Origin: a virus
Taxonomy: Duplodnaviria; Heunggongvirae; Uroviricota; Caudoviricetes
Virus record (IMG/VR): IMGVR_UViG_2703718817_000007
Direction: 5' to 3' (one strand)
Length of the DNA: 15,704 nt
The notes below the pieces were generated by a model. The model was not told where the DNA came from. It searched no databases and saw only the letters and a program-made list of their open reading frames with translations. Positions within the stretch are counted from its first letter, which is position 1. The number at the start of each line of letters is the position of its first letter. A program made the translations under genes and the position numbers. Shown piece after piece: positions 1 to 15,704 of this stretch.

Positions 1-156
1 ATGAGGGACACCCCCGCGAACCATAAACGCGGTAAAAACCCGGTGTGCATCGTTTTTGATTATTCCCGCACACTCACGCAGAAGGAATTCCCCGTCGGGC
101 TACGGTCATGGTTAATGCGGGAATACGGCGACGATACAGCGCAGCTAAAAGGGTAA
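1..156 (+). CDS. Short ORF (51 codons) at the window edge; either a small gene or the 3' end of a gene starting outside the window
   Basis: ATG at 1 to TAA at 154-156, uninterrupted; protein-like composition (MRDTPANHKRGKNPVCIVFDYSRTLTQKEFPVGLRSWLMREYGDDTAQLKG). Not in the ORF track, which appears to list only ORFs of about 60 aa or more. No family recognised. Confidence 0.2.
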   Translation: MRDTPANHKRGKNPVCIVFDYSRTLTQKEFPVGLRSWLMREYGDDTAQLKG

Positions 157-324: not shown

Positions 325-618
325 ATGAAAAAAATGTTGTTTTCTGCCGCTCTGGCAATGCTTATTACAGGATGTGCTCAACAGACGTTTACTGTTGGAA
401 ACAAACCGACAGCAGTAACACCAAAGGAAACCATCACCCATCATTTCTTCGTTTCGGGAATTGGACAGGAGAAAACTGTTGATGCAGCCAAAATTTGTGG
501 CGGCGCAGAAAATGTTGTTAAAACAGAAACCCAGCAAACATTCGTAAATGGATTTCTCGGTTTTATTACTTTAGGCATTTATACTCCGCTGGAAGCGCGT
601 GTGTATTGCTCACAATAA
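325..618 (+). CDS. bor: Bor outer-membrane lipoprotein (serum-resistance lipoprotein of lambdoid phages), 97 aa
   Basis: ORF track 277..618 is the TTG-extended form; internal ATG at 325 follows AGGA at 313-316. N-terminal lipoprotein signal MKKMLFSAALAMLITGC (lipobox ITGC). Sequence agrees closely with lambda Bor / DLP12 BorD as recalled (QQTFTV..KETITHHFFVSGIGQ..ICGGAENVVKTETQQTF). Convergent with the lysis genes, as in lambda. Confidence 0.9.
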   Translation: MKKMLFSAALAMLITGCAQQTFTVGNKPTAVTPKETITHHFFVSGIGQEKTVDAAKICGGAENVVKTETQQTFVNGFLGFITLGIYTPLEARVYCSQ

Positions 619-625
619 TTGCATG

Positions 626-649
626 AGTTGCCCATCGATATGGGCAGCT
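626..649. terminator. GC-rich hairpin between convergent bor and the Rz remnant; possible weak bidirectional terminator
   Basis: Stem 626-635 pairs with 640-649 (core gcccat/atgggc), loop cgat; lies 8 nt after the bor stop. Flanking U-runs are poor on both strands. Confidence 0.35.
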
Positions 650-882
650 CTATCTGCACTGCTCATTAATATACTTCTGGGTTCCTTCCAGTTGTTTTTG
701 CATAGTGATCAGCCTCTCTCTGAGGGTGAAATAATCCCGTTCAGCGGTAACAGTTCTCTGGCATTTTTGTCGCGCTGGGCTTTGTAGGTAATGGCGTTAT
801 CACGGTAATGATTAACAGCCCATGACAGGCAGACGATGATGCAGATAACCAGAGCGGAGATAATCGCGGTTACTCTGTTCAT
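650..882 (-). pseudogene. Rz: Rz/Rz1 spanin remnant: Rz 5' end fused by internal deletion to the Rz1 reading frame; Rz 3' end retained out of frame
   Basis: Minus-strand ATG at 880-882 overlaps the endolysin stop (ATGA). The product [44 protein letters not shown] matches lambda Rz residues 1-44 as recalled, then continues [13 protein letters not shown], which is the recalled C-terminus of Rz1 (stop 709-711). One frame over, 650-745 encodes ..[31 protein letters not shown], the recalled Rz C-terminus. The ORF-track entry 709..894 is the GTG-extended form. Confidence 0.75.
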
Positions 883-1376
883 TGCTGACCCCACAAACAG
901 ATTTCACGCTCAATCTCACGACGAGTCATGAGACCTTTCCATTGCTTACCGCCAGCATATGTCCAGCGACGTAGCTGATCACATGCGCCTTTGATATCGC
1001 CCTGGTTTATTTTGCGAAGAAGCGTCGATGTTCTGAAATTGCCAGCACCCACGTTGTAAACGAATGAGTAAAGAGCGCCGCGCGTTGTTTCCGGTATATC
1101 GACTTTGATGTACGGGTTAATTTGTCTGGCGACAGTGGCAAGGTCTTTATTCAAGAGTGCTTTGCATTCTGCTTTGGTATACGTTTTACCGAGCATGATG
1201 TCTTTTCCTGTATGCCCGTGACATACAGTCCATACACCAACAATATCTTTGTATGGTATGTAGCTGACACCCTCCAGACCATCGTTACCACTTGAGCCAG
1301 TGATTAACACTGATGCTATAGCAATTGCTCCGCCACCAATAGCAGCAGCAACGGCTTTTCGTAATGATGGAGGCAT
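879..1376 (-). CDS. R: SAR endolysin (phage 21 R / DLP12 RrrD-type lysozyme), 165 aa
   Basis: ORF track 879..1376. N-terminal signal-anchor-release segment rich in Gly/Ala ([26 protein letters not shown]) followed by a lysozyme catalytic region ([13 protein letters not shown]). ATG at 1374-1376 overlaps the holin TAA (TAATG). Length matches RrrD (165 aa) as recalled. Confidence 0.9.
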
Positions 1377-1591
1377 TATTCACCTCTCGCAGCCTTGCGC
1401 TTATCTTCTTTAATCTTGAAATAAAGGTTTGTCAGGTACGTCAGCAAGCCAAATACCAGGCTACCCAGCACTCCAATTGCCGCCCACTGTGAGGGCGTGA
1501 CTTTATCTAGCAGCTGTAAAAACCAGTATCCGGCACTACCTGCTGAGGTGCCATAGGCGACACCCGTTGTTAACTTATCCATGGATTTCAT
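1376..1591 (-). CDS. S: Class II pinholin (S21 / EssD-like), 71 aa, with dual-start motif
   Basis: ORF track 1376..1591. MKSMDK.. N-terminus gives Met1/Met4 dual starts typical of S21 antiholin/holin; two hydrophobic segments; C-terminus [22 protein letters not shown] upstream of the ATG at 1589-1591. Confidence 0.9.
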
Positions 1592-1719
1592 AACCCCACC
1601 TCGCAGACAAAGCGGGTGTAAATTAAGGGGATACTACGTATCGCAATAAAGGCAGAAACGTAACAGATTCGGAGTCAGTGAATAACTCAGGTATTGGGTT
1701 ATCAGCTAATATCGAGACT

Positions 1720-1753
1720 CAAAAAATGGAAAAACCCGCTCGACGGCGGGTTT
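1720..1753 (-). terminator. Intrinsic terminator on the minus strand between the porin upstream region and the holin gene
   Basis: 8-bp stem aaacccgc (1732-1739) / gcgggttt (1746-1753), loop 1740-1745; on the minus strand the stem is followed by uuccauuuuuu (reverse complement of 1721-1731). Lies in the path of the Q-dependent late transcript. Confidence 0.5.
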
Positions 1754-2180
1754 AAGCTGTGTGACGAAGTAACCACTCTTAACAGCATAACCAATTTTTT
1801 ACGTACGTAAACTACTAAATGATATTTGTGAGAATGCCACCGAGTGTTCAAAACACCACCACAAATACATAAGAAAACTTCAACAAATAACCAATGAATA
1901 ATTTCCGATGTTATTTTTAGTTTGTTTAAATTAAGCTAAAGAATTATAGATCTCTTATAAATAAGTGCCATTAATATAAATTAGCTAATAGATTTATTTT
2001 CGTTCAAACAAGAGCCATGAATAGGATTAGATAGAAAAGGTTTAGATAAAAATAGAGATCTACTTCACAAATTAAATGAGAAACTAAAACTTACATCTTG
2101 AAATAATCGCATTGATTAGATGAATATTTATCGCGCAGTGACATCATTTTTTAATAATAGTTCAAAAAAAAGGGCGTACA

Positions 2181-3263
2181 ATGAAAAAATTAACAGTGGC
2201 AATTTCTGCTGTAGCTGCATCAGTACTGATGGCGATGTCTGCTCAGGCAGCTGAAATTTATAATAAAGACAGTAACAAGCTGGATCTATACGGGAAAGTT
2301 AATGCCAAGCACTACTTCTCCTCTAATGATGCAGATGATGGTGATACTACTTATGCCCGTCTTGGCTTCAAAGGTGAAACCCAAATCAACGATCAACTGA
2401 CTGGTTTCGGTCAGTGGGAATATGAATTCAAAGGCAACCGTGCTGAATCTCAAGGTTCTTCCAAAGACAAAACCCGTCTTGCATTTGCAGGCCTGAAATT
2501 TGGTGATTACGGCTCAATCGATTACGGCCGTAACTACGGTGTAGCATACGACATCGGTGCGTGGACTGACGTCCTGCCAGAATTCGGTGGTGATACCTGG
2601 ACCCAAACAGATGTGTTCATGACTGGTCGCACTACTGGTGTTGCAACTTATCGTAACAACGACTTCTTTGGTCTGGTCGATGGCCTGAACTTTGCTGCTC
2701 AGTATCAGGGTAAAAATGACCGCACTGACGTAACTGAAGCCAATGGTGATGGTTTCGGTTTCTCCACTACTTATGAGTATGAAGGATTCGGCGTGGGTGC
2801 AACCTATGCTAAATCAGATCGCACTGACGGTCAGGTCGCCTATGGTAAGAGCAAATTCAATGCCTCCGGCAAAAATGCGGAAGTATGGGCTGCAGGCCTG
2901 AAATATGATGCGAACAATATCTATCTGGCTACCACATATTCTGAAACTCAGAATATGACCGTTTTTGGTAATAACCATATTGCAAACAAAGCACAAAACT
3001 TTGAAGCAGTAGCACAATATCAGTTTGACTTCGGTCTGCGTCCATCTGTTGCTTACCTTCAGTCAAAAGGTAAAGACCTTGGTGTTCATGGTGACCGAGA
3101 CTTAGTCAAGTATGTCGATGTCGGTGCTACTTACTACTTTAATAAAAACATGTCCACTTTTGTTGATTACAAAATCAACTTAATTGACGATAGTAAGTTT
3201 ACCAAAACAGCTGGTATTGATACCGACGACATCGTCGCTGTAGGTCTGGTTTATCAGTTCTAA
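2181..3263 (+). CDS. nmpC: Outer-membrane general porin of the OmpC/OmpF family (NmpC / phage PA-2 Lc-like), intact, 360 aa
   Basis: ORF track 2181..3263. Signal peptide [23 protein letters not shown]|AEIYNK; porin hallmarks ([15 protein letters not shown].., Gly/Tyr-rich beta strands, C-terminal ..VAVGLVYQF). Sits between Q and the lysis genes in the opposite orientation, as nmpC does in DLP12. Preceded by a roughly 400-bp AT-rich region (1780-2180). Confidence 0.9.
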
Positions 3264-3270
3264 TCTGACT

Positions 3271-3311
3271 TACGAAAAAGATATGTTGCGGGAGGCTTTG
3301 CCTCCGCAACA
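3271..3311 (-). terminator. Candidate tR'-like intrinsic terminator for the short pR' transcript (minus strand)
   Basis: GC-rich hairpin tgttgcgggagg (3284-3295) / cctccgcaaca (3301-3311) with one bulge; on the minus strand it is followed by uaucuuuuucg (reverse complement of 3271-3283). No U-run on the plus strand. Confidence 0.45.
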
Positions 3312-3451
3312 TATAAGTGGAGCCCTCAAGCCACTTCCTTTAGAAGCACTACCTTGCTTCTTACTATATAAACCTTCTGTTATATATTACCCTTTATTTT
3401 GGGGGCGTTTCCACGCCCCATTTTTAATAACTTTTAGTAAACAATTGCATA
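3312..3451 (-). promoter_or_regulatory. Region expected to hold the late promoter pR' and the Q-utilisation (qut) site; exact -35/-10 not resolved
   Basis: Lies immediately downstream of the Q stop (3452) and upstream of the tR'-like hairpin, the arrangement known from lambda and 82. Several imperfect sigma70-like hexamers (e.g. ttgata..., tatagt on the minus strand) but none unambiguous. Confidence 0.3.
3402..3426 (+). terminator. Plus-strand intrinsic terminator, likely for the porin transcript
   Basis: Stem ggggcg (3402-3407) / cgcccc (3414-3419), loop tttcca, followed by atttttaat on the plus strand. Confidence 0.45.
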
Positions 3452-3835
3452 TCAATTAGAATTATTAGCAACGATATCCATATCTAACCGGATATCTAAT
3501 GCCATTAACATCCCTTCAATTATGCCCTCAGCCTTCTGTAACCTTTTCCCGATATAACCATCCGAGCAGCAATGCTTACTTGCCAGTGACATGAATGTCA
3601 TACCACATACATAATAATCTACTAATAAATCGTGTAAATCGCTGTTGTTCTTTTTCAGACGGGCCATGCACCCGCAAATGATCATCGCGTCATCGTCACA
3701 ACATTGCGGGCGAGATTTTACTTTTGAAGGAATTAATCCCTTAAAACCGGCGGCAATGGACGACCAGGTCACATCTTCATGATTATTAGCCGCCCACGCT
3801 CCCCAACGTTCAAGAACCATCTGAATATCACGCAT
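3452..3835 (-). CDS. Q: Late-gene antiterminator Q (phage 82 / DLP12 QuuD family), 127 aa
   Basis: ORF track 3452..3850 is the TTG-extended form; ATG at 3833-3835 follows GGAG. Product starts [24 protein letters not shown].. with Cys-rich zinc-binding core ([17 protein letters not shown]); length equals QuuD as recalled. Confidence 0.85.
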
Positions 3836-3852
3836 TAACTTTCTCCACAAAA

Positions 3853-4848
3853 TCAGGCCAGCACACCAATCGCCAGTGCGCGATCGATAAAACGAAATAT
3901 CAGCTCCAGCTGGGAGCCATACTTCTCTTCAAATGCCACGGTATCCGCATGCAGCTCGTCGTGATGCTTTCTGCACAAAGGCAACACAAAAAGGTCATGC
4001 GCTTTTGTACCCATTCCCCCCTGACCGTGGCCTATCAGGTGGTGGGGATCATCAGCAGGTTTTCCACAACATGCGCACGGCTGCGTCTTAACCCAGCGCG
4101 TGTACTTTTCATTAACCCAGCGGTGACGTTTTGGGCGTAACATAAAAGACTCCGGCGACTCCGGATCCACTTTCAGCGCCAGCACCTTTTTCGCCTTATC
4201 CTGGATGATGCTGGTGGCAGGAACCGAAGGCACAAGGTCACTTTCCCGGGTAACAGACGGCACAACAGGCTTCGGTAATCTCAGTGCCTTACGGGCTGCA
4301 CTTTCCGGTAAGGCATCCGCCAGATCATTACGAATCAGCCACCAGCACAGTTCCGGCATTGTCACAACATGACTGTCATCAAAACCGAGATCCCGACGCA
4401 CAACAGACAACACCCAGCGGGCACAGTTATCCGTTGCCATTGATTCCAGCCGTTCCGTGAACTGATCGCGCAGCTGGTTATCGCAGTGCCAGCACAGACG
4501 GATTGCGCCCGGAGCGTGTCGCATTGTTGTCATGTTCTCGCTGTGCCAGTCGGAATGAGGCCACTGGCAGCCTTTTTCACGAAGTAACCAGCTTTCAAGA
4601 CATTCCACGCCACCAGCACGACGGATCACTGCCTCATTGCGGAACACGGCCCGAACGGCAGGATCATCCGCCAGCGGTTGTGATGCCGCCGGAACGGCAC
4701 CACTGGCGAAAGATGAATAACGTTCCGGCTCAGGCTCCAGCAGGACACGCCCCTGCATAAACAAGGGCATCAGCTCTGAACCTGGTCTGAACAATACGAT
4801 CCCCATACGCGGGGCAATTTCAGGGGTCAGTAGTGCTCTCACGGTCAC
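3853..4848 (-). CDS. Phage protein with C-terminal Cys/His-rich HNH-like motif (DUF968-like by recollection); function unknown
   Basis: ORF track 3853..4848 (GTG start overlapping the upstream stop; an alternative ATG at the RMGIVLF codon exists). C-terminus [43 protein letters not shown] has paired Cys and His-His motifs. Family name is from memory, unverified. Confidence 0.5.
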
Positions 4849-4849
4849 C

Positions 4850-5665
4850 TCAATGAACGGTATCGAGCAGCTTTAACAGCTCAGGGAATCGGGATTCGAA
4901 GAAATGCGGCTGCGTCTCGCGCGGATTTGCAGGACTGGTGATGTTCTTGCCGAACATGCAGCCTTTCGCGGTCAGCGACCAGAATTTTTTGATGTTGTTA
5001 ATCGCGGTACGGCTGTATCGTTCGCGTTGTTCAACGATCCCCAGCTTCGCCATCTGGTGATATGCCTGATTAGCCGTCAGGCGGATACCATACTGCTTCA
5101 GCAGTGCACTCAGCGACAGCGTAGGGCGGCTTGAACCATCTGGCGCATCAGCAGGTGCATCAATGGCATAGATCGGCATAAGTTCAGGAAGACCAGCTAC
5201 CTTTGATAATTTCTGGTATGCACCAAGTTTCGAGGAGTTTGACAGATTTAGAGTCTTTGCTGCTGATTCAAGCAGAATGACCCCGGATTTAATTTTGTCG
5301 GATGTGGTTTCTTCTGGTGATGAATTATGAAGCGCATCAAAAGTACGTATCACTTTTAAGCTGAATGCCGGGCTGATCCACATTGCATATGCATAGACCA
5401 GCTCTTTACAGACATACGTCCCACCATTGCGCCCCTGAATGGTGATGACAGGAATACTACGGGAATCTCCCGTAGTTTCTTCTTCCAATAATTCCACAAG
5501 AGCCTTCGTTTCAGGACGACGCATAAACTCGTGAACTTCCAGCGAACGGGAGGAGCGATTCTCACCAGCGGCAAGAAGAGCTGCTTTCTGAAGGTCGTTA
5601 AGACAGTAGTTAGATTCGAAGTACTGGCGCACAGAAACGCCATCAATTACAAGCAACTGATTCAT
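4850..5665 (-). CDS. KilA-N domain protein (phage antirepressor/Bro-like architecture), 271 aa
   Basis: ORF track 4850..5677 is the GTG-extended form; ATG at 5663-5665 follows GGAGAAA. N-terminal 100 aa resemble the KilA-N fold (MNQLLVIDGVSVRQ.., ..TYVCKELVYAYAMWISPAFSLKVIRTF); C-terminal half is a separate domain. A consensus LexA box lies just upstream. Confidence 0.7.
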   Translation of the reverse strand: MNQLLVIDGVSVRQYFESNYCLNDLQKAALLAAGENRSSRSLEVHEFMRRPETKALVELLEEETTGDSRSIPVITIQGRNGGTYVCKELVYAYAMWISPAFSLKVIRTFDALHNSSPEETTSDKIKSGVILLESAAKTLNLSNSSKLGAYQKLSKVAGLPELMPIYAIDAPADAPDGSSRPTLSLSALLKQYGIRLTANQAYHQMAKLGIVEQRERYSRTAINNIKKFWSLTAKGCMFGKNITSPANPRETQPHFFESRFPELLKLLDTVH

Positions 5666-5762
5666 TGGTTTCTCCACAAATTTTTATCCACGAGCGGGAC
5701 TGCACTCCCTTTTCGTTGATGCAGGATGAACTTACTGCGATTTTTAATAGTTATCAAGGATA

Positions 5763-5782
5763 CACTGTTCATAAATACAGTA
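5763..5782. promoter_or_regulatory. Consensus-like LexA (SOS) box in the rusA / KilA-N intergenic region
   Basis: cACTGTtcataaatACAGta at 5763-5782: CTGT-N8-ACAG with an AT-rich spacer, close to the TACTG(TA)5CAGTA consensus. On the minus strand it sits immediately upstream of a candidate promoter (TTGATA-17-TAAGTT) for the KilA-N gene. Confidence 0.55.
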
Positions 5783-5827
5783 TCTTTAACGAGGTAATAC
5801 CCAAATTTAGGGTGTTGCTCAATTCCG

Positions 5828-6223
5828 TTACCGAGTTGCTAATTTGCAACTCGCTTTTTCGTACTTACTGATAGTGATCTCGACCTTCCCCTCCGGGATA
5901 ACCGGTCCCCACTCCACCAGCATTCTTTTCACCTGACTGTCGTCTTCCCACACACCCGCGTGGGTCAGGGCGTCAAACAGCGCCTTGTTATAGTTGTCCA
6001 GATCGCGGATCCGGTTATCCGGAGGAAACAACACGATCTCCACTGAAGCAGGTGCCGACGTTGGTTTCGGCAGACGACGTAACTGCTCAACTATTGCTGC
6101 ACACGCCGCGCTCTGGAATTTTCGCCCCGCCGCGCTTATCAGGCTCTTACCAGCAAACGCCCCTTTGTTGGGGTGTCGCCAGTACGTGTTCACGCTGGGC
6201 GGAAAAGGTAGGATCAGCTTCAT
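5828..6223 (-). CDS. rusA: RusA-family Holliday junction resolvase, 131 aa
   Basis: ORF track 5828..6223. MKLILPFPPSVNTYWRH.. with the RusA acidic catalytic region (..DNRIRDLDNYNKALFDALTHAGVWEDDSQV). ATG overlaps the upstream gene stop (ATGA). Confidence 0.85.
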   Translation of the reverse strand: MKLILPFPPSVNTYWRHPNKGAFAGKSLISAAGRKFQSAACAAIVEQLRRLPKPTSAPASVEIVLFPPDNRIRDLDNYNKALFDALTHAGVWEDDSQVKRMLVEWGPVIPEGKVEITISKYEKASCKLATR

Positions 6224-6546
6224 ACTTTCAGGCCCCTCTCATGTAACCAGTGGGCTGCACGCAGCCTGGCGTTTTCCTCACCGGCAAGCAGTGAGCGGAT
6301 AATCCCGACCGCCTCGCTGTCGTCGTCCTTCACCACGGTATGAAGCGTGATCCCCCGGGCCACACCACGCTTTATCGTGATGACGCCTTTTTTCTCCAGT
6401 GCGCGAAGATGCTCCACCGCTGCATTCACTGAACGGTATCCCAGCATGGTTGCCACCTCCTGATTGGTTGGCGGGAAGCCACGTTCTTTCTGATAAGAAA
6501 TCAGCATATCCAGCACCTGCTGCTGGCATTGAGTTAACGTCGTCAT
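6220..6546 (-). CDS. Small protein consisting of a LexA-type N-terminal winged-helix DNA-binding domain only, no S24 peptidase domain, 108 aa
   Basis: ORF track 6220..6546. LTQCQQQVLDMLISYQKERGFPPTNQEVATMLGYRSVNAAVEHLRALEKKGVITIKRGVARGITL parallels the E. coli LexA N-terminus ([55 protein letters not shown]) as recalled. Only about 35 aa follow. ATGA overlaps at both ends. Confidence 0.7.
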   Translation of the reverse strand: MTTLTQCQQQVLDMLISYQKERGFPPTNQEVATMLGYRSVNAAVEHLRALEKKGVITIKRGVARGITLHTVVKDDDSEAVGIIRSLLAGEENARLRAAHWLHERGLKV

Positions 6547-7196
6547 GCCGCCATCTCCCTGACCAGTTTTTCCGCCTGCTGGCGAACCTGCGCCAGAAAC
6601 GCCTCACCACATGCCTCAAGTTCATCGCGCCCGATGTAGCTGATTGCCGGTCCCTTCCAGGTCTTGTCGAAAACAGCAATAGCACCAGCGAAGAAAGCGC
6701 CTGTCGGCACCTGCTTCTCATCTTTCGGGATAAACCAGGCAGGCAGTTCAAAACCAATACGCCCGCGAATAAAAGCAATATGATCTGCATCTTCCGGCCA
6801 CCACACTTCGCTGGTGGCAGCTTTGATCAGGAAAACATAGCGCCCACCTTTATCACGCATGGCACTGGCATGCTTCATGATGTAACGCATGCCTGTGATG
6901 TATTGCCCCTCATGCTGACTGGCGCGGCTGTATGGGGGATTACCAAAGGCAGCACCTTTAAGCTCCGCAAGACGTTCTGACCAGTCATGCGCCAGCGCGT
7001 TGTCTTCCGCCGTGTAATACGCAGCACATTTGGTGTTATCACCGTCAGTGAACAGATCCAGAACAAACGGGCCAAACAGGGTGTTAATTCCCCAGAAAAT
7101 GTTGTCCGGCGTGCGCCACTGATCGCCCACTTCCTTCAGTTCATGGGCTGGTTTGTTCCGCAGTTCCACCAGCGCCTGGCAATATTTATTACTCAT
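6543..7196 (-). CDS. Phage DNA N6-adenine methyltransferase (Dam-like, YfdM-type), 217 aa
   Basis: ORF track 6543..7229 is the GTG-extended form; ATG at 7194-7196 overlaps the upstream TAA (TAATG). Contains the NPPY catalytic motif (AAFGNPPYS) of amino-methyltransferases. Confidence 0.8.
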   Translation of the reverse strand: MSNKYCQALVELRNKPAHELKEVGDQWRTPDNIFWGINTLFGPFVLDLFTDGDNTKCAAYYTAEDNALAHDWSERLAELKGAAFGNPPYSRASQHEGQYITGMRYIMKHASAMRDKGGRYVFLIKAATSEVWWPEDADHIAFIRGRIGFELPAWFIPKDEKQVPTGAFFAGAIAVFDKTWKGPAISYIGRDELEACGEAFLAQVRQQAEKLVREMAA

Positions 7197-7684
7197 TAAG
7201 CCCCCACGTAATTCCCTGACAGATACCACTCTTCACCCGATGCAGCGCGCTTGCTGCTTTTCCGTAAACACCGCTCACGACGCGCCAGAAAATTGTTTCG
7301 TTCTGGTTGGGAGTGGCTTTCACGGAATGCCGCCATCCACACGGTTGCAGCACGACGGTATAAGCCCCTGGACTCCAGTTCTTCAGCCTGGCGGGTCAGG
7401 CACAAAATTACCCGTGGATCGTTAGTGCCGACATAGAAATTGCGCGCAGGTCTGGTTTCACGAACTGGTTGTGGTTCCGGCTCCTGCGCTCTCTCAGTCA
7501 GGCGCGGGAAATGTCTGCGTGTATCCCCTTCACAACGGTGAGCCACACGCCCACTCTGACGTAACTTGCTTGCTGACTGCAGAACGCGCTGCCGTGAGTA
7601 GCCTGCAAAAGCATCCGCAATGTCTCCGGAAGTACACCCCGGATGGGCTTCAATGAATTTCTGAACTTCATTCAAAAGACTCAT
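7196..7684 (-). CDS. PerC-like / YfdN-like putative transcriptional activator, 162 aa
   Basis: ORF track 7196..7684. C-terminal ..EELESRGLYRRAATVWMAAFRESHSQPERNNFLARRERCLRKS resembles the PerC-family signature as recalled; length close to K-12 YfdN (164 aa). SD AGGGGG before the ATG. Confidence 0.5.
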   Translation of the reverse strand: MSLLNEVQKFIEAHPGCTSGDIADAFAGYSRQRVLQSASKLRQSGRVAHRCEGDTRRHFPRLTERAQEPEPQPVRETRPARNFYVGTNDPRVILCLTRQAEELESRGLYRRAATVWMAAFRESHSQPERNNFLARRERCLRKSSKRAASGEEWYLSGNYVGA

Positions 7685-7686
7685 GA

Positions 7687-8628
7687 TTACCCCCTGAATC
7701 CTGCCGGGATCTGGCTGTAGTCCACGTTGTCGTAACTGGCTTTGAAGTACGCGTCTTCGCGTTTTTCGGTGTACGTGCTTACGGACGGCGATAAGCGCAG
7801 GGAAAGCTCATCCCATTTTTCCCGCAGCTTCGACGGGCTGAGCACGTTACGGCACCAGAACGGATCGCGGCTGACGCGGCTGTACATCTCGCAGATTTGT
7901 TTGTGAGTACGACCATCCTGCACACACATCAGGCGAATTTCGTTTGCCCAGGCTGTCCAGTTCGGTTCTTTGGGACGAACCACCTCGCCGTCACATTCGG
8001 CAGCCTGCTCGTACAGGGCGATGATTTTTTTCCAGAGCCACTGTGCGCAGGTCAAATCATCCTGCGTCCCCCACTGGCGCTTTTTAGGGCTGAATACAAC
8101 CGCATCAGGATGGCGAGTTAAAAAATCCTGTTCAGCCGTCTGCGTGTCCGGTTGCGAAGCGTCCGGACGAGAAGGTTTTTTATCTGACGGATCATGTTTT
8201 GATTTTACTGACGGATCCCCGCCAGATTCTGACGGGTGAAAACCCGCTTTTTTGCCAGATTTCGACGCATCAAATTTTGACGGGTCAGATTTTGATGCGT
8301 CAGATTTTGACGGGTCAGAATCTGACAGTTGAGAAAATGCCGCAGCCTGAAGCTTCGCAACGTTAAGCTGATAAACATTCGACGCATTGCGGTTACCCTG
8401 GCGACGCGCCTTACGCGTTAACCAGCCTTCTGCTTCCAGCCGTGCGATAGCCGTTCTGACTGTACTCATCCCCGCGCCAATCTGGCGGGCAATGGTTTCA
8501 ATCGATGGCCAGCACACACCTTCGTCATTACTGAAATCAGCCAGGCGGGCCATAATTGCCACGCTGGATAATTTCATGCCTGACGCTGCGCAACCATCCC
8601 ATACATAGCCGGTTAATTTAGTGCTCAT
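7687..8628 (-). CDS. Replication initiator (lambda O-like organisation: N-terminal winged-helix domain, repeat-encoded linker, C-terminal domain), 313 aa
   Basis: ORF track 7687..8628. N-terminus (..SSVAIMARLADFSNDEGVCWPSIETIARQIGAGMSTVRTAIARLEAEGWL..) is a typical replication-protein HTH; the middle is a low-complexity linker (SDSDPSKSDASKSDPSKFDASKSGKK..) encoded by tandem DNA repeats; the position after cro/cII matches O. Confidence 0.7.
   Translation of the reverse strand: MSTKLTGYVWDGCAASGMKLSSVAIMARLADFSNDEGVCWPSIETIARQIGAGMSTVRTAIARLEAEGWLTRKARRQGNRNASNVYQLNVAKLQAAAFSQLSDSDPSKSDASKSDPSKFDASKSGKKAGFHPSESGGDPSVKSKHDPSDKKPSRPDASQPDTQTAEQDFLTRHPDAVVFSPKKRQWGTQDDLTCAQWLWKKIIALYEQAAECDGEVVRPKEPNWTAWANEIRLMCVQDGRTHKQICEMYSRVSRDPFWCRNVLSPSKLREKWDELSLRLSPSVSTYTEKREDAYFKASYDNVDYSQIPAGFRG
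8181..8330. repeat. Iteron-like tandem repeats (about 8 copies, 15-bp period) inside the replication initiator gene; candidate origin
   Basis: Copies at 8223-8237 cagattctgacgggt, 8256-8270 cagatttcgacgcat, 8271-8285 caaattttgacgggt, 8286-8300 cagattttgatgcgt, 8301-8315 cagattttgacgggt, 8316-8330 cagaatctgacagtt, plus degenerate copies at 8181-8217 next to an AT-rich patch (8170-8215). Confidence 0.55.
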
Positions 8629-8976
8629 GACCGACCTCTATTTCCCTGAATTTACGACGAAACTGTTCGAGCGGACTGAAGCACTCATGCTCATAGCCTT
8701 CGCGGAGGTAGATAACCCGTTGTGTTTCCGGTTCCCAACGAATGACTCTGACGGGCACTCCGTAGTGATCTTTGAACCAGCGGTTAACTTGTCGCAAAGG
8801 ACTGTCTCCTTCTGCCGGTTGAAATCCCCCACAGCCCACTCTGCAAAGCTGTGGGTTACAATTTCCCTGTCACCTGGTACATTCACTGCATAGCAATATT
8901 CCACCTTCGCTTTTCCACCCGGTACAGGAAGCGCAATCAGTTGCGAGCGACGGTAGTGTGTTGTTAAACTGTTCAT
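8618..8976 (-). CDS. Hypothetical small gene between the cII-position gene and the replication gene; apparently split across two frames (possible -1 frameshift, 1-nt indel, or two overlapping ORFs)
   Basis: Frame A (8638..8976) starts with an ATG overlapping the upstream stop (ATGA at 8973-8976) but its C-terminal half is Ser/Thr-rich and low complexity. Frame B (8618..8839) has globular-looking composition (..[49 protein letters not shown]..) and its stop overlaps the replication gene start. The frames meet at a C5/G5 run (8826-8830). Confidence 0.4.
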
Positions 8977-9542
8977 GCGTTAGTTTCTCCACAACCAGAA
9001 GCAATCGACGCCACGACGCCCGGAGCTGCACACTCGCGGGCGTCATTACTTTCTGAAATGCAAAAAATTTTGTAGACAAGTGCTGCATGCTCCTGCAGCT
9101 TCGAAATTGAGAGATACAGCTCGTCGTTAATTGCTGTCTTCTCATGCGGTTCCACTACACCGTCTTCGATTGCTGAACGAATCTGTTTTGAATAACTGCC
9201 GATCTGTTCAATGACTTCCAGCAGACGCTGGTTAATATCGGCGTTGTCCACATCCTCGACGTCAGGAAGAGACACAAAGACGCCATTTGCAGACTGCGCC
9301 ACAGCATCAGCAATGAAATGAGTGCCACCAGCACGCTGTAAAACCATTGCCCATCCCAGCGGGAAAATCTGATCGCCATCTGCACGAAGGCGGTTGAATA
9401 AAGCGTTTTCTGTTACATCGAGCCAGTCAGCCGCTTCAGCGTAACCACCCGGCAACGCCGCGATAGTTTTTCTGACAGCTTTCACGTACCACTCAGGCTG
9501 TTTTTCTATTTTCCAGTGATGCTTACCCACGATTAGCCTCAT
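8973..9542 (-). CDS. cII-position regulatory protein (HTH-containing; resembles the phage CII / CP76-type family by architecture), 189 aa
   Basis: ORF track 8973..9542. Directly downstream of cro; HTH-like segment [21 protein letters not shown]. Family assignment is from recollection of 186-CII-like proteins and is uncertain. Confidence 0.45.
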
Positions 9543-9573
9543 CGTTCTGTGGTTAAAAATTGAAAGTGTTCTG

Positions 9574-9774
9574 CTAATCTTTCGGATAGATATCCGGTCT
9601 TAAGTCAGATTTCGTAATTGCACCTGACGTGCATTGCTCAAGTTTTTTAGCCAGCACAAAACTGGCTTTTTTATAGCCATTGAAAACCAGCCGTAAGTAG
9701 CCAGGTGTTGAGCCAACTTTTCCGGCCAACTCGCCCTGCTGTTCTTTGGTTAAAGAGTCCCAATACGCTTTCAT
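9574..9774 (-). CDS. cro: Cro-like HTH repressor (YdaS/Cro-type), 66 aa
   Basis: Internal ATG at 9772-9774 of the long ORF 9574..10077, preceded by GGAGGT; product MKAYWDSLTKEQQGELAGKVGSTPGYLRLVFNGYKKASFVLAKKLEQCTSGAITKSDLRPDIYPKD. The upstream 300 nt of the long ORF is antisense to cI and is rejected. Divergent from cI across the operator region. Confidence 0.7.
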   Translation of the reverse strand: MKAYWDSLTKEQQGELAGKVGSTPGYLRLVFNGYKKASFVLAKKLEQCTSGAITKSDLRPDIYPKD

Positions 9775-9777
9775 ACA

Positions 9778-9864
9778 ATATGTACCTCCGGTATACATAT
9801 TACATGATTGAAATGAACCTTCAAGATACTTGTACCTTAACGGTACAAGGGTTTTAATTTCGTT
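9778..9864. promoter_or_regulatory. Immunity-switch operator/promoter region (OR): palindromic operators with divergent pR-like and pRM-like promoters
   Basis: Perfect palindrome CTTGTACC-N5-GGTACAAG at 9829-9849; imperfect ATATGTACC-tcc-GGTATACATAT at 9778-9800. Minus-strand promoter TTGAAG (9819-9824) -16- TAATAT (9797-9802) feeds cro. On the plus strand a TTTAAT-like -10 at 9852-9858 sits about 7 nt before the cI ATG, suggesting a leaderless cI mRNA. Confidence 0.6.
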
Positions 9865-10539
9865 ATGAAAACAATCCATGACATCCGGCGGTCTAACGCC
9901 AGAAAACTGAGAGATGGTGTTGGCGGGAATTCTTCCTTTGCCACTATGATTGATCGCGAGCCAACCCAGACCAGCAGGTTTATGGGAGATGGTGCTACTA
10001 AAAATATCGGTGACAGCATGGCACGACACATCGAAAAATGTTTCGACCTGCCTGTCGGATGGCTCGATCAAGAACACCAGACAACGAACATCACAAAAAA
10101 ACCTGATGTTTCAATCACTAATAAACAAATCACATTAGTCCCTGTCATATCATGGGTACAGGCCGGAGCATGGAAAGAAGTTGGATATTCTGAGGTTGAT
10201 TTGAGCACAGCAGAAACGTATCCCTGCCCTGTACCCTGTGGGGAAATGACTTATATCTTGCGGGTGATAGGTGATTCAATGATTGATGAGTACCGCCCGG
10301 GAGACATGATTTTTGTCGATCCTGAAGTACCTGCCTGCCACGGTGACGACGTTATTGCATTGATGCACGATACAGGTGAAACCACCTTCAAAAGGTTGAT
10401 AGAAGATGGGACACAGCGTTATCTCAAAGCGTTAAACCCAAACTGGCCTGAGCCTTACATTAAGATCAACGGTAATTGCTCTATAATTGGAACTGTGATT
10501 TTCTCAGGAAAACCAAGAAGATACAAAATCAAAGCCTAA
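9865..10539 (+). CDS. cI: CI-type prophage repressor (N-terminal HTH plus C-terminal LexA-like S24 peptidase domain), 224 aa
   Basis: ORF track 9865..10539, ATG start. C-terminal domain has GDSM (Ser nucleophile), ..TFKRLI.. (Lys) and VQAG linker motifs as in lambda cI/LexA. Confidence 0.85.
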   Translation: MKTIHDIRRSNARKLRDGVGGNSSFATMIDREPTQTSRFMGDGATKNIGDSMARHIEKCFDLPVGWLDQEHQTTNITKKPDVSITNKQITLVPVISWVQAGAWKEVGYSEVDLSTAETYPCPVPCGEMTYILRVIGDSMIDEYRPGDMIFVDPEVPACHGDDVIALMHDTGETTFKRLIEDGTQRYLKALNPNWPEPYIKINGNCSIIGTVIFSGKPRRYKIKA

Positions 10540-10551
10540 TCAATGTTTATG

Positions 10552-10576
10552 AACCTGCTTCGGCAGGTTTTTTTAT
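10552..10576 (+). terminator. Intrinsic terminator after cI
   Basis: Stem aacctgc (10552-10558) / gcaggtt (10563-10569), loop ttcg, followed by tttttat (10570-10576); 13 nt after the cI stop. Confidence 0.7.
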
Positions 10577-10578
10577 AC

Positions 10579-10610
10579 TTGACAATGTACCTTTGGGATA
10601 CATAATGTAC
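10579..10610 (+). promoter_or_regulatory. Strong sigma70-like promoter with embedded operator half-sites; candidate pL/OL
   Basis: TTGACA (10579-10584) -16 nt- CATAAT (10601-10606). ATGTACC at 10585-10591 and 10604-10610 with GGATACAT between them resemble the OR half-sites (TTGTACC/ATGTACC). Confidence 0.5.
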
Positions 10611-10690
10611 CCAAGAGAAACAACAAACAGGCAGGACGCCCACGAAGTAGCCGCCTGGAGCATATGAAGTCTAGGATGATTCATTAGCAA

Positions 10691-10718
10691 CAAAAAAGCG
10701 CCCTACAGGACGCTTAGC
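10691..10718 (-). terminator. Intrinsic terminator for the minus-strand moron gene
   Basis: On the minus strand: aagcgucc / gggcgcuu stem (one G-U pair), loop ugua, followed by uuuuguug. The plus strand has an A-run before it, so it should not stop plus-strand transcription. Confidence 0.5.
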
Positions 10719-10728
10719 TCTTTAACAA
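10717..10728 (+). promoter_or_regulatory. boxA-like element (exact match to the rrn boxA core GCTCTTTAACAA), about 105 nt downstream of the pL-like promoter
   Basis: gctctttaacaa at 10717-10728 on the plus strand; followed by a 6-bp hairpin gcaatc-taca-gattgc at 10749-10764 (boxB-like position). May alternatively be part of the cassette boundary repeat. Confidence 0.4.
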
Positions 10729-10747
10729 TCTGGATATCCACAACAGT
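10726..10747. repeat. Left arm of an inverted repeat bracketing the moron gene
   Basis: caatctggatatccacaacagt; core aatctggatatcc is the exact reverse complement of 11294-11306 (ggatatccagatt), with extended similarity (..caaca..) beyond the core. Confidence 0.6.
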
Positions 10748-10753
10748 AGCAAT

Positions 10754-11245
10754 CTACAGATTGCCGTTAAGTTTTCTGGACAACTCCTCAATGGATGGAG
10801 GCGATACGTAATCCGGATTTTTATTCATCAGAAACTTATTTTCACAGTGGAGGCACCTGCTTTTATGAAAAAGCTCATCTTCGCTAACCGGGAATGGTTG
10901 AAGTATCGATACTATCTTTTGTCCAAAACATTTTGGGCAAAGATGCATGGTTATGCTGCCACCGTTCACGATTACCTCCTTCGAGTATACAAAAGTACCC
11001 GACTCAAGTTGGTTAAGGATATAGCCTTCCGTCTGAGCCTCAAAGTTTTCGAATTCTGCAATTTTAGCTTTGAGAGAAGCATTTATTTCTTGATAAGAGC
11101 CCACCAGTTCAACGAGAGACACGCATTCGCGCTGAATAGACGCAAGCTTTGAGTTCAGCTCACCAATAGCCGCATTTACTTCAGCTTGAGTTTTTGCCTC
11201 GTTCATTAGTTTTGCAATCTGGGCTGTTTCACGAATAGCCGTCAT
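10754..11245 (-). CDS. AT-rich moron gene: hypothetical protein with N-terminal coiled-coil-like region and C-terminal CxxC..CxxC zinc-ribbon, about 163 aa
   Basis: ORF track gives 10754..11533, but the first 96 codons are Arg/Pro-rich GC-rich sequence that overlaps the repeats and is unlikely to be coding; the ATG at 11243-11245 begins MTAIRETAQIAKLMNEAKTQAEVNAAIGELNSKLASIQ.. and ends ..HLCPKCFGQK..(24 aa)..CLHCENKF.. The ATG has no clear SD, so the start is uncertain. Base composition is clearly more AT-rich than flanking phage DNA. Confidence 0.5.
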   Translation of the reverse strand: MTAIRETAQIAKLMNEAKTQAEVNAAIGELNSKLASIQRECVSLVELVGSYQEINASLKAKIAEFENFEAQTEGYILNQLESGTFVYSKEVIVNGGSITMHLCPKCFGQKIVSILQPFPVSEDELFHKSRCLHCENKFLMNKNPDYVSPPSIEELSRKLNGNL

Positions 11246-11283
11246 TGCTGCCGTTAATTCAGCGATCACATTGAATACTCTTA

Positions 11284-11329
11284 TTGTTGTTGGGGATATC
11301 CAGATTAACCGAATCCTTGTTGTTGGGGA
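11284..11329. repeat. Right arm of the moron-bracketing inverted repeat plus a 13-bp direct repeat
   Basis: ttgttgttgggga occurs at 11284-11296 and again at 11317-11329; the first copy runs into ggatatccagatt (11294-11306), the reverse complement of 10727-10739. Confidence 0.6.
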
Positions 11330-11557
11330 ATAACCAGGTCCACCTCGCCTGATGTGGCTAAAAGCAGGCACATAACAGCTAAGTATTTTCAACCAGAGAG
11401 AATCCTTAGCGTTGTGGTGAATGCGGCTCAGCGCACGCGGGTTAAGGTTGAGGCTGACAGTCGACCTTCTGTGGATACCCACCCGCCTGGTGTGCAACCT
11501 TCGCCAGGCACCGGGAGGCACCCGGCACCACAACTTTATGCTGTGTGTAGTCCTGGC

Positions 11558-11592
11558 GGTACCAGTTTGTACCCTTGCTTCCGGCTGGTACC
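11558..11592. promoter_or_regulatory. Operator-like GGTACC palindromes upstream of the early-left operon
   Basis: GGTACCAGTTTGTACC at 11558-11573 (contains TTGTACC, the OR half-site) and GGTACC at 11587-11592. Confidence 0.35.
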
Positions 11593-11603
11593 GTCCTTTT
11601 TTG

Positions 11604-11690
11604 CAAAACAGAGAAGAGCATCACCGGACGACGGGCTCATAACCCAATCCATCCGGGCGGCTGCCACCGCAGGTGTTCTTCTCTGTTTTG
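11604..11690 (+). other. Large structured element: 14-bp perfect inverted repeat plus 4-bp extension enclosing a GC-rich loop of about 60 nt, 50 nt upstream of the yfdP-like start
   Basis: caaaacagagaaga (11604-11617) pairs with tcttctctgttttg (11677-11690); cacc (11622-11625) pairs with ggtg (11672-11675). Preceded by a T-run (11595-11602) but not followed by one on either strand, so it is not a canonical terminator. A second small hairpin gacc-ttgcag-ggtc lies at 11704-11717. Confidence 0.5.
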
Positions 11691-11739
11691 TGGAGAAACC
11701 AACCGACCTTGCAGGGTCGATATGATGAGGAGCAGCAAA

Positions 11740-12102
11740 ATGGCTAGCGAACGCAGTACTGATGTGCAGGCATTTATCGGGGAGCTGGACGGCGGCGTAT
11801 TTGAAACCAAAATCGGCGCAGTTCTCAGTGAGGTCGCTTCCGGTGTGATGAACACGAAAACCAAAGGGAAGGTCTCACTCAATCTGGAAATCGAACCGTT
11901 TGATGAGAACCGTGTGAAAATCAAACACAAACTCTCATATGTTCGCCCAACTAACCGCGGGAAAATTTCCGAAGAAGACACCACCGAAACGCCGATGTAT
12001 GTCAATCGCGGTGGTCGGCTGACTATTCTGCAGGAAGACCAGGGACAATTACTGACTCTTGCCGGTGAACCTGACGGAAAACTCCGCGCAGCAGGTCGTT
12101 AA
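11740..12102 (+). CDS. yfdP: YfdP-like hypothetical protein (first gene of the early-left operon), 120 aa
   Basis: ORF track 11575..12102 is the TTG-extended form; ATG at 11740 follows GAGGAG. Length and position (before a 274-aa gene) match CPS-53 yfdP as recalled. Confidence 0.55.
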   Translation: MASERSTDVQAFIGELDGGVFETKIGAVLSEVASGVMNTKTKGKVSLNLEIEPFDENRVKIKHKLSYVRPTNRGKISEEDTTETPMYVNRGGRLTILQEDQGQLLTLAGEPDGKLRAAGR

Positions 12103-12167
12103 TATCGTTCGTAATAAACTGATTATTTATCTCATCACTGAATATCTTTATATAGTGAGGACTTATT

Positions 12168-12992
12168 ATGTCTCAGAACTTAGACGCAACCGCAATTAAT
12201 CAAATCCATGCCCTTATTTCTGCTCAGGGTGTTAATGAAATTATCAGTAAGATTGGTGCCGATGCTGTGGCATTGCCTGAGAATTTCCGCATTCATGATC
12301 TGGAAAAATTTAATTTAAATCGCTTCCGTTTCCGTGGTGCACTTTCCACTGCCAGCATCGATGATTTTACCCGTTATTCTAAAGATCTTGCAGATGAAGG
12401 CACCCGCTGCTTTATCGATGCCGATAATATGCGTGCCGTCAGTGTGCTTAACCTGGGTACTATTGATGAGCCAGGTCACGCAGATAACACTGCCACTCTC
12501 AAACTGAAAAAGACAGCACCGTTCTCTGCTCTGTTGTCTGTTAACGGCGAGCGTAACTCCCAGAAGTCACTTGCAGAATGGATCGAAGACTGGGCCGACT
12601 ACCTTGTGGGCTTTGATGCTAATGGTGACGCTATTCAGGCAACAAAAGCGGCTGCGGCAGTCCGTAAAATCACGATTGAAGCAAACCAGACCGCTGATTT
12701 TGAAGATAATGACTTCAGCGGCAAACGCTCCCTGATGGAGTCTGTCGAAGCGAAGACCAAAGACATTATGCCAGTGGCATTTGAATTTAAATGCGTTCCG
12801 TTTGAAGGTCTGAAAGAACGTCCGTTTAAATTACGCCTCAGCATTATCACTGGCGATCGTCCTGTACTGGTTCTGCGCATTATTCAGCTGGAAGCGGTGC
12901 AGGAAGAAATGGCTAACGAATTTCGTGATCTGCTTGTTGAGAAATTCAAAGACAGCAAAGTAGAAACCTTTATTGGTACTTTCACCGCCTGA
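12168..12992 (+). CDS. yfdQ: YfdQ-like protein (DUF2303-type by recollection), 274 aa
   Basis: ORF track 12168..12992, ATG with GAGGA SD. Length identical to K-12 YfdQ; gene order matches CPS-53. Confidence 0.6.
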
Positions 12993-13004
12993 TTTCATTA
13001 CTGC

Positions 13005-13030
13005 AAATGCCCCTGCGGGGGCATTTATGG
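13005..13030 (+). terminator. Terminator-like hairpin between the yfdQ-like and yfdR-like genes (weak)
   Basis: aaatgcccc (13005-13013) / ggggcattt (13018-13026), loop tgcg; the downstream tail is short (auuuaugg). Confidence 0.35.
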
Positions 13031-13119
13031 AAACGTAATTAACTCAATAATCACCGGATGGTGAGGGCTTCCTTTTACCAGAATTCAGCGCGGTGCAGTG
13101 CATATACGTGGAGAACAAA

Positions 13120-13656
13120 ATGTCATTTATTAAAACTTTTTCCGGGAAGCATTTTTATTATGACAAGATAAATAAAGACGACATCGATATTAACGATATC
13201 GCGGTTTCCCTTTCAAATATCTGTCGCTTTGCCGGTCATCTTTCGCACTTCTACAGCGTCGCCCAACATGCGGTTCTTTGCAGCCAGCTGGTGCCGCAGG
13301 AATTTGCTTTTGAAGCGTTAATGCATGATGCAACAGAAGCGTATTGCCAGGACATTCCCGCACCACTGAAACGCCTTCTTCCTGACTATAAACGGATGGA
13401 AGAAAAAATAGACGCCGTAATCCGTGAGAAATACGGGTTACCCCCAGTTATGAGTACACCCGTGAAATATGCCGATCTCATCATGCTGGCAACCGAACGC
13501 CGCGATCTCGGGCTTGATGATGGCTCTTTCTGGCCTGTACTGGAAGGCATCCCGGCAACAGAGATGTTCAACGTGATTCCACTGGCACCGGGTCATGCCT
13601 ACGGGATGTTTATGGAACGTTTTAACGATTTATCGGAGTTACGCAAATGCGCATGA
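13120..13656 (+). CDS. yfdR: HD-domain phosphohydrolase (YfdR-like 5'-deoxynucleotidase), 178 aa
   Basis: ORF track 13093..13656 is the GTG-extended form; ATG at 13120 follows GGAGAA. His-Asp signature (H..ALMHDATEAY) and length equal to K-12 YfdR. Confidence 0.7.
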   Translation: MSFIKTFSGKHFYYDKINKDDIDINDIAVSLSNICRFAGHLSHFYSVAQHAVLCSQLVPQEFAFEALMHDATEAYCQDIPAPLKRLLPDYKRMEEKIDAVIREKYGLPPVMSTPVKYADLIMLATERRDLGLDDGSFWPVLEGIPATEMFNVIPLAPGHAYGMFMERFNDLSELRKCA

Positions 13657-14009: not shown

Positions 14010-14314
14010 TGACCACATTTACCAATAAAGAACTGATTAAAGAAATCAAAGAACGAATCAGCAGCCTAGAGGTTCGAGACGATATTGAGCGCCGTGCTTA
14101 TGAAATCGCACTCGTATCTCTGGAAGTAGAGCCAGATGAACGCGAAGCCTATGAATTATTCATGGAAAAGCGTTTCGGTGACTTAGTAGATCGTCGGAGA
14201 GTAAAAAACGGCGATAACGAATACATGGCATGGGATATGACTCTCGGTTGGATCGTCTGGCAGCAACGAGCTGGTATCCATTTTTCAACAATGACACAGC
14301 AAGAGGTGAAATAA
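14009..14314 (+). CDS. yfdT: YfdT-like hypothetical protein, 101 aa
   Basis: ORF track 14009..14314; TAATG overlap with the upstream gene; length equals K-12 YfdT. Confidence 0.6.
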   Translation: MTTFTNKELIKEIKERISSLEVRDDIERRAYEIALVSLEVEPDEREAYELFMEKRFGDLVDRRRVKNGDNEYMAWDMTLGWIVWQQRAGIHFSTMTQQEVK

Positions 14315-14685
14315 TGGAGCCATACAGCCTCACACTCGATGAGGCCTGTCAGTTTCTTAAGATATCCAGACCAACCGCCACCAACTGGATACGAACAGGC
14401 CGCCTACAGGCAACACGTAAAGATCCAACCAAGCCAAAATCTCCTTACCTCACAACACGGCAAGCTTGCATTGCGGCGCTTCAGTCTCCGCTGCATACTG
14501 TCCAGGTGAGCGCGGGTGATGGCATAACAGAGGAAAGAAAATGTCACTCTTCCGCAGAAATGAAATATGGTATGCCTCGTATTCGCTCCCGGGCGGGAAA
14601 CGAATTAAGGAATCTCTTGGCACAAAGGACAAGCGGCAAGCTCAGGAGTTGCACGACAAGCGAAAAGCAGAACTCTGGCGAGTAG
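14314..14685 (+). CDS. xis: Excisionase-like (Xis / AlpA-type HTH) protein; 3' end uncertain
   Basis: ATG at 14314 follows AAGAGGTGA and overlaps the upstream [38 protein letters not shown] parallels the lambda Xis pattern (YLTLQEW..SLETVRRWVRECRI..EYLF) as recalled. The frame has no stop until 14685, overlapping int by 145 nt, unusually long for an Xis. The ORF-track entry 14230..14685 is the GTG-extended form. Confidence 0.5.
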
Positions 14686-15704
14686 AAAAGCTAGGGGATT
14701 TACCTGATGTCACTTTTGAAGAGGCCTGCCTAAGATGGCTTGAGGAAAAAGCTGATAAAAAATCTCTCGATTCAGATAAAAGCCGGATTGAGTTCTGGCT
14801 TGAACATTTTGAGGGTATAAGGCTTAAAGATATCTCGGAGGCAAAGATTTACTCTGCTGTAAGCAGAATGCATAACAGAAAGACGAAAGAAATATGGAAA
14901 CAGAAAGTTCAGGCCGCCATCAGGAAAGGTAAAGAACCGCCTGTTTATGAACCAAAGCCAGTATCAACTCAGACAAAGGCAAAGCATCTTGCCATGATAA
15001 AGGCCATTCTCCGTGCTGCAGAACGCGACTGGAAGTGGCTGGAAAAAGCGCCTGTCATCAAGATACCAGCGGTCAGAAACAAGCGAGTCAGATGGCTGGA
15101 AAAGGAGGAAGCAAAACGCCTTATTGATGAGTGCCCCGAACCACTGAAATCTGTCGTCAAGTTTGCGCTGGCAACTGGTCTGAGAAAGTCGAACATCATA
15201 AATCTGGAATGGCAACAAATCGACATGCAGCGACGAGTTGCCTGGGTGAATCCAGAAGAGAGCAAATCAAACCGCGCCATTGGTGTGGCGCTGAACGATA
15301 CCGCCTGTAAAGTGTTGCGTGATCAAATAGGCAAGCATCACAAATGGGTGTTTGTACATACCAAGGCGGCTAAGCGAGCAGATGGAACATCAACGCCTGC
15401 GGTCAGGAAGATGCGCATCGACAGCAAGACATCATGGCTATCAGCTTGTCGTCGTGCAGGAATTGAAGATTTCCGTTTCCATGACCTCAGACACACCTGG
15501 GCAAGCTGGCTGATCCAGTCAGGCGTCCCATTATCAGTGCTTCAGGAAATGGGCGGATGGGAGTCCATAGAAATGGTTCGTAGGTATGCTCACCTTGCGC
15601 CTAATCATTTGACAGAGCATGCAAGGAAAATAGACGACATTTTTGGTGATAATGTCCCAAATATGTCCCACTGTGGAATTATGGAGGATATAAAGAAGGC
15701 GTAA
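14541..15704 (+). CDS. int: Tyrosine site-specific integrase (DLP12 IntD-like by length and N-terminus), 387 aa
   Basis: ORF track 14541..15704; SD GAGGAAAG; catalytic R..HxxR..Y signature near the C-terminus ([11 protein letters not shown].., ..MVRRYAHL). Stop coincides with the window end, so the attachment site lies outside. Confidence 0.9.

Follow-up and report, generated by a model that had tools for sequence, protein, structure and literature searches.

A small internal deletion fuses the nested spanin genes Rz and Rz1 in a phage-21-type lysis cassette of a lambdoid prophage

The closest described counterparts of the locus analyzed here are the Rz and Rz1 spanin genes of phage 21 and lambda (rzpD/rzoD; PF03245 and PF06085). 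Saturating mutagenesis of lambda Rz/Rz1 (Cahill et al. 2017, PMC5295617) led to the conclusion that the spanin complex is essential for disruption of the outer membrane in lysis. Lambda Rz has been mapped as a transmembrane domain (residues 1-24), a first coiled coil (27-87), a second coiled coil (121-150) and then a C-terminal domain, and every nonsense allele up to codon 152 was lysis-defective (PMC5295617). Lambda Rz1 requires its proline-rich region (residues 32-36) and its lipoylated Cys20, and a defect in either subunit yields spherical cells that are bounded by the outer membrane and stabilized by Mg2+ (PMC5295617). Unimolecular spanins, the other known architecture considered below, require an N-terminal lipoprotein signal and a C-terminal transmembrane domain (PMC5295617).

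The sequence analyzed, hereafter the window, is a 15,704-nt stretch from the Caudoviricetes record IMGVR_UViG_2703718817_000007. Its left 1.6 kb contains a phage-21-type lysis cassette on the minus strand, made up of a pinholin gene, a SAR endolysin gene and a 57-codon open reading frame. The gene order, S-R-Rz'-bor, is that of phage 21: the Rz remnant follows the SAR endolysin through an ATGA overlap, and bor comes next on the opposite strand. The features of the cassette and of the disrupted spanin locus are as follows.

1376..1591, minus strand: class II pinholin (S21/EssD type), 71 aa, full length (PF04971 Phage_holin_2_1, E=2e-35)
879..1376, minus strand: SAR endolysin (R21/RrrD type), 165 aa, full length (PF00959, E=1.3e-45)
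709..882, minus strand: Rz'-'Rz1 fusion ORF, 57 codons plus stop, from translation; stop codon at 711..709
751..882, minus strand: Rz codons 1-44 (transmembrane domain 1-24 and start of coiled coil 1), DNA 100% identical to phage 21; tblastn
749..750, minus strand: junction, where 2 nt (TT on the minus strand) replace 231 bp (phage 21 locus L001, 1751-1981); blastn
712..747, minus strand: Rz1 codons 49-60, now in frame with Rz 1-44 (tblastn, 100% identity, E=4e-5)
650..748, minus strand: Rz codons 122-153 plus stop, out of frame with the fusion ORF (tblastn, 100% identity, E=6e-18, residues at 748..653)
325..618, plus strand: bor/iss lipoprotein gene, 97 aa, intact, not a spanin (PF06291, E=3.7e-30)

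The pinholin and the SAR endolysin, which a sequence-only reading of this DNA had taken to be intact, were both full length by Pfam and by comparison with phage 21. The pinholin was identical to phage 21 S at 61 of 71 positions in a gap-free alignment and carries the dual-start motif MKSM. The endolysin differed from phage 21 R at only two residues (163/165 identical) and kept the catalytic residues E35, D44 and T50. The two genes belong to the phage 21 pinholin/SAR-endolysin type, in which a dual-start S21-family holin precedes a lysozyme that has an N-terminal signal-anchor-release domain and the E-D-T triad.

The third frame of the cassette is composed of Rz residues 1-44, one Leu and the last 12 residues of Rz1, and it starts at an ATG (882..880) that overlaps the endolysin stop codon. 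Translation and tblastn with the phage 21 proteins bore out the earlier description of an Rz frame that continues for about 44 residues and then reads the Rz1 C-terminus, and they also placed the Rz C-terminus one frame over, as that description had it. This Rz 3' remnant, which ends TAERDYF...INEQCR, matched positions 95-126 of PF03245 (E=1e-11). The resemblance of the remnants to phage 21 Rz and Rz1 is not a matter of chance. No start codon that would give an ORF of at least 20 aa was present in the frame of the 3' remnant, and as judged from its reading frame this segment is untranslated, having no usable start codon. No Pfam spanin family was detected in the 57-aa product, PF03245 included.

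The nature of the lesion was established by nucleotide alignment of the region with phage 21 Rz/Rz1, the check that the sequence-only reading had proposed. Window positions 560-1000 (441 bp) matched phage 21 and many E. coli prophages at 100% identity, in two pieces that together span 670 bp in phage 21 and the prophages vs. 441 bp here. Since both flanks are identical to phage 21 over the whole 441 bp, the lesion lies in an otherwise pristine allele. The blastn breakpoints were at window 748/751 and at 1982/1750 of the phage 21 locus, and 229 bp were lost on balance, a length not divisible by three. The earlier estimate of an out-of-frame deletion of about 230 bp stands in size and frame; the event was not a clean excision, with 231 bp lost and 2 nt gained. 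The same break at 748/751 was recovered against all ten intact comparators, that is, phage 21 and nine prophage relatives fetched through the neighboring porin gene or through whole-window similarity. Likewise, in 10/10 comparators with a completely readable gene pair, either phage-21-type or allelic, Rz was full length at 145-153 aa and enclosed an Rz1 of 60-70 aa. The alignments support a single internal lesion relative to an intact phage-21-type Rz/Rz1.

The breakpoints read ...GAACTG/ACGCTGG... and ...GGCAGAC/ACCGCTG..., the observed product is GAACTG-TT-ACCGCTG, and the two breakpoints have at most 3 nt (GAC) in common. A clean deletion at the GAC microhomology would have yielded CTGACACC; the product observed was CTGTTACC, and this route was rejected. 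A natural allele that reads GCAGTTACC was considered as the origin of the junctional TT and was also rejected, as the complete E. coli genomes held no full-length exact match to this sequence, the best match having one mismatch. The divergent 145-aa Rz allele of E. coli KK19-02, whose prophage is the closest whole-window relative, does not explain the TT either. A two-step deletion model that passes through an internal TGTTGCCGCTGG motif would fit the product with the exception of one base. We infer that the junction arose by illegitimate deletion with a 2-nt filler or, equivalently, by a deletion with two junctional substitutions.

Compared with phage 21, Rz codons 45-121 and Rz1 codons 1-48 are missing and 2 nt are inserted, so that neither subunit can be made and the product is an Rz(1-44)-L-Rz1(49-60) chimera. 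Of the domains on the lambda map, the membrane anchor is retained in the in-frame product, and coiled coil 1 is cut short after its first 18 residues. The deleted part of Rz (residues 45-121) comprises the remainder of coiled coil 1 and the second linker, Cys99 included, and coiled coil 2 and the C-terminal region with Cys152 are present out of frame. The missing block also holds the first 48 codons of Rz1, with its start codon, signal peptide, lipoylated Cys20, Cys29 and penta-proline motif, and the Rz1 ribosome-binding site was lost as well. The earlier claim that the deletion had taken out the Rz1 start and lipobox thus agrees with the alignment, both elements lying within the 231 bp. Since all of Rz1 is nested within Rz, in the +1 frame, a single lesion was enough to destroy both genes. 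A single mutational event would have deleted 231 bp inside Rz/Rz1 and left the 2-nt filler; what remains would be a 57-aa inner-membrane stub, consisting of the Rz transmembrane domain and about 20 periplasmic residues followed by the last 12 residues of Rz1. Such a stub could neither span the periplasm nor reach the outer membrane.

By nucleotide homology and by its position downstream of the endolysin, the locus descends from the Rz-Rz1 family. The inner-membrane subunit of a two-component spanin has a transmembrane domain, two coiled coils and an Rz1-binding end in about 150 aa, and no product of this locus has this build. Nor does the locus encode an outer-membrane subunit, which would be a small lipoprotein read from the +1 frame of Rz, with a signal peptide, a proline-rich region and a Cys in a lipobox. 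The locus is a pseudogene pair of phage-21-type Rz/Rz1, a member of the family by descent that fails both functional features. One could instead suppose a naturally short or unimolecular spanin variant, given that the 57-codon frame is open and includes a transmembrane domain. That supposition was refuted by the alignments, in which the flanks are DNA-identical (100%) to full-length phage 21 Rz/Rz1 with 231 bp missing and the 3' end of Rz is perfectly conserved yet cannot be translated. The periplasmic part of the product, at about 33 residues, is in addition too short to bridge the periplasm. The fusion has its transmembrane domain at the N-terminus and lacks the lipobox that unimolecular spanins need (PMC5295617), and it therefore cannot be a unimolecular spanin of the T1 gp11 type. 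We give a natural short variant practically no credence.

A spanin encoded elsewhere in the window could in principle stand in for the lost pair. We searched the 15.7-kb window by tblastn with Rz1 and by a lipobox scan of all ORFs and internal start codons. No separate o-spanin, u-spanin or Rz1-like ORF was found in the window, and the sole ORF with a lipobox was Bor, in accordance with the sequence-only reading, which had seen no separately encoded o-spanin.

The distribution of the junction was examined with a 58-nt probe, a match being counted when it covered at least 80% of the probe length. Neither the 5,426 complete E. coli genomes nor the 50,697 phage records searched contained a match; in both collections only the 30-nt left half of the probe was matched. 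Scans for exact junction 30-mers or 23-mers gave no match in one genome per GTDB species, in JGI metagenome contigs or in IMG/VR, and an exact look-up in the assembly collection had no record of the fusion protein from either possible start (57 aa or 61 aa). The absence of the junction from all collections searched indicates that the lesion is private to the source of the window, and it is probably recent. A singleton allele that does not recur also fits random recent decay.

Artefacts of sequencing, assembly or cloning look like singletons too, and if the junction were of this kind the true genome would have an intact Rz/Rz1. Its absence from every other public sequence searched and the unrecorded fusion protein are what such an artefact would produce. 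Several properties of the junction speak against this origin, however. There is no repeat long enough for an assembly collapse, as the breakpoints share 3 nt at most. Loss of 231 bp with a 2-nt filler is typical of illegitimate recombination or repair and not of homopolymer or consensus errors. The flanks are free of errors at 100% identity to phage 21, and the remaining window is 99.7% identical to a relative with ORF lengths preserved. An artefact is improbable on these grounds, and we take the deletion to be a genuine feature of the prophage.

Every other ORF in the window had the same length as in the closest relatives, and the spanin deletion appears, from these comparisons, to be the sole lesion within the window that is specific to this sequence. 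The simplest reading is decay of a resident prophage by a recent mutation that is neutral or mildly deleterious. The sequence-only reading had offered prophage decay or domestication; the former is reasonable, and selection or domestication is without support. Taken together, the anatomy of the lesion, the double spanin knockout and the expected lysis consequence, read as a recent decay mutation, very likely constitute the best explanation of the locus.

On induction, the pinholin and the SAR endolysin would still depolarize the membrane, degrade the cell wall and kill the cell. The last step, fusion and rupture of the outer membrane, would be expected to fail, and the outcome would be fragile spherical cells with poor release of virions. 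Shear, low concentrations of divalent cations or the spanin of another, co-induced prophage might rescue release. Spanin mutants still lyse in shaken laboratory cultures to which no Mg2+ has been added, which makes the term "defective" conditional. For the prophage, if otherwise viable, poor virion release is predicted under low-shear, Mg2+-rich conditions. The lysis module is probably defective, as was previously proposed from the sequence, and this assessment follows from lambda genetics (PMC5295617). The locus resembles the lambda null alleles RzQ100am and Rz1W38am and the nonsense series of Cahill et al. 2017 (PMC5295617), in that Rz is truncated and/or Rz1 abolished, and the same Mg2+-stabilized spherical cells bounded by outer membrane would be expected. 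The lambda alleles are engineered laboratory point mutations that affect one subunit each, whereas here a natural deletion hits both.

The lesion may also be real and have little effect, either because another lambdoid prophage complements it in trans or because the outer membrane fails naturally. The Rz region was matched in 5,083 of the 5,426 E. coli genomes, and the matched genomes have a median of two Rz-region places each and up to nine, so that a co-induced prophage could supply the missing function in trans. Lambda Rz/Rz1 alleles do complement in trans from plasmids, and selection of lysis-defective mutants in lambda needed Mg2+-supplemented medium (PMC5295617). On the other hand, late genes of other prophages are expressed only upon co-induction, and the conclusion of the lambda work is that outer-membrane disruption cannot dispense with the spanin complex (PMC5295617). 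We therefore regard a lesion of little consequence as unlikely, if plausible enough to keep in view beside the preferred reading of a defective lysis module.

Retention of the cassette or of the 57-aa fusion for a benefit to the host, through wall turnover, vesicle modulation or action as a spanin decoy, was weighed as well. For the S-R-Rz/Rz1 operon of DLP12 in K-12, transcription and an effect on the production of biofilm and of outer-membrane vesicles have been reported, which makes a host-level role for such cassettes conceivable, and loss of the DLP12 lysis module in Shigella has been discussed as pathoadaptive (PMC7918800). The fusion itself retains a start codon, the ATGA coupling to the endolysin, a transmembrane anchor and 12 C-terminal residues of Rz1. 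Yet the allele is a singleton that showed no spread or recurrence in the collections searched, and a random deletion that shifts the frame would look the same. Truncation at residue 55 leaves Rz1 functional (PMC5295617), and its extreme C-terminus is accordingly no dominant interaction determinant. A benefit to the host is very improbable on this evidence. In the decoy version, the membrane-anchored 12-residue Rz1 end would bind the Rz C-terminus of co-resident or superinfecting lambdoid phages, and their outer-membrane rupture would be blocked or delayed. The open frame is the sole feature of the locus that speaks for such a decoy, or for a cassette kept for wall remodeling without bursting, and we place this version lower still.

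Inactivation of lysis functions in a resident lambdoid prophage has parallels in a second locus, L007 (GCA_044941385.1), and in the loss of the DLP12 module in Shigella (PMC7918800). In L007 (1..2911) a gpJ-like tail gene comes right after the holin, and similarity to the window starts only at window position 1178, most of the endolysin and the spanins being missing. This independent, larger lesion suggests that erosion of such cassettes is not unusual. Unlike those cases, which have different and independent breakpoints, the deletion described here hit only the spanin pair and is private. It is ordinary pseudogenization and nothing new in kind. The appropriate annotation is an rzpD/rzoD pseudogene pair, in place of a short "lysis protein." The locus neatly illustrates, in a natural setting, how nested genes turn one small deletion into a double knockout; beyond annotation it has little import, and it neither raises nor settles a question on spanins or prophage domestication.

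The spanin locus also coincides with a boundary between modules of different ancestry. Over window positions 766-15704, the int-to-Rz side, identity was 99.7% with the prophage at argU in E. coli KK19-02, whose Rz is a different allele (145 aa) and in which a KilA-N module takes the place of bor. In contrast, positions 35-748, the bor and Rz 3' side, were 99.9% identical to another lineage (locus L012). With different closest relatives on its two sides, Rz not only carries the deletion but also marks a seam at which modules have recombined.

Close relatives of the prophage occupy the argU/DLP12 attachment site. An intD-type integrase ORF (14541..15704, plus strand) terminates exactly at the edge of the window; in relatives that are 99.2-99.7% identical over the integrase part, a tRNA-Arg gene (argU) follows 15 bp further on, and then fimZ/sfm genes. 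This order points to the DLP12 attachment site as the probable location of the present prophage. The tRNA and Rfam scans found no tRNA gene or Rfam family inside the window, and the position of the tRNA lies outside it here. At the opposite edge, a 51-aa ORF (1..156, plus strand) had no Pfam match on its own and is probably the 3' end of a ybcV (DUF1398)-like gene cut by the window edge, since ybcV lies just beyond bor in the relative 2014C-4587. In relatives, nohD and the large terminase subunit gene come further beyond the ybcV-like ORF, which puts the packaging and structural genes outside the window.

Two other gene remnants were seen in the prophage. In close relatives, the counterpart of about 11414..11725 (plus strand) bears the annotation of a frameshifted hypothetical gene, and that of about 14314..14380 (plus strand) the annotation of a C-terminally truncated helix-turn-helix gene upstream of int. 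These lesions are older and common to the lineage, whereas the spanin deletion is private. The window also contains an intact gene for a 360-aa porin of the OmpC family (Porin_1/Porin_4; 2181..3263, plus strand), oriented opposite to late-gene transcription and placed between the Q antiterminator gene (3452..3835, minus strand) and the pinholin gene. The same position presumably carries lc in phage PA-2 and nmpC in DLP12. The exact porin protein is extremely widespread and was present in 27,981 blocks of the assembly collection.
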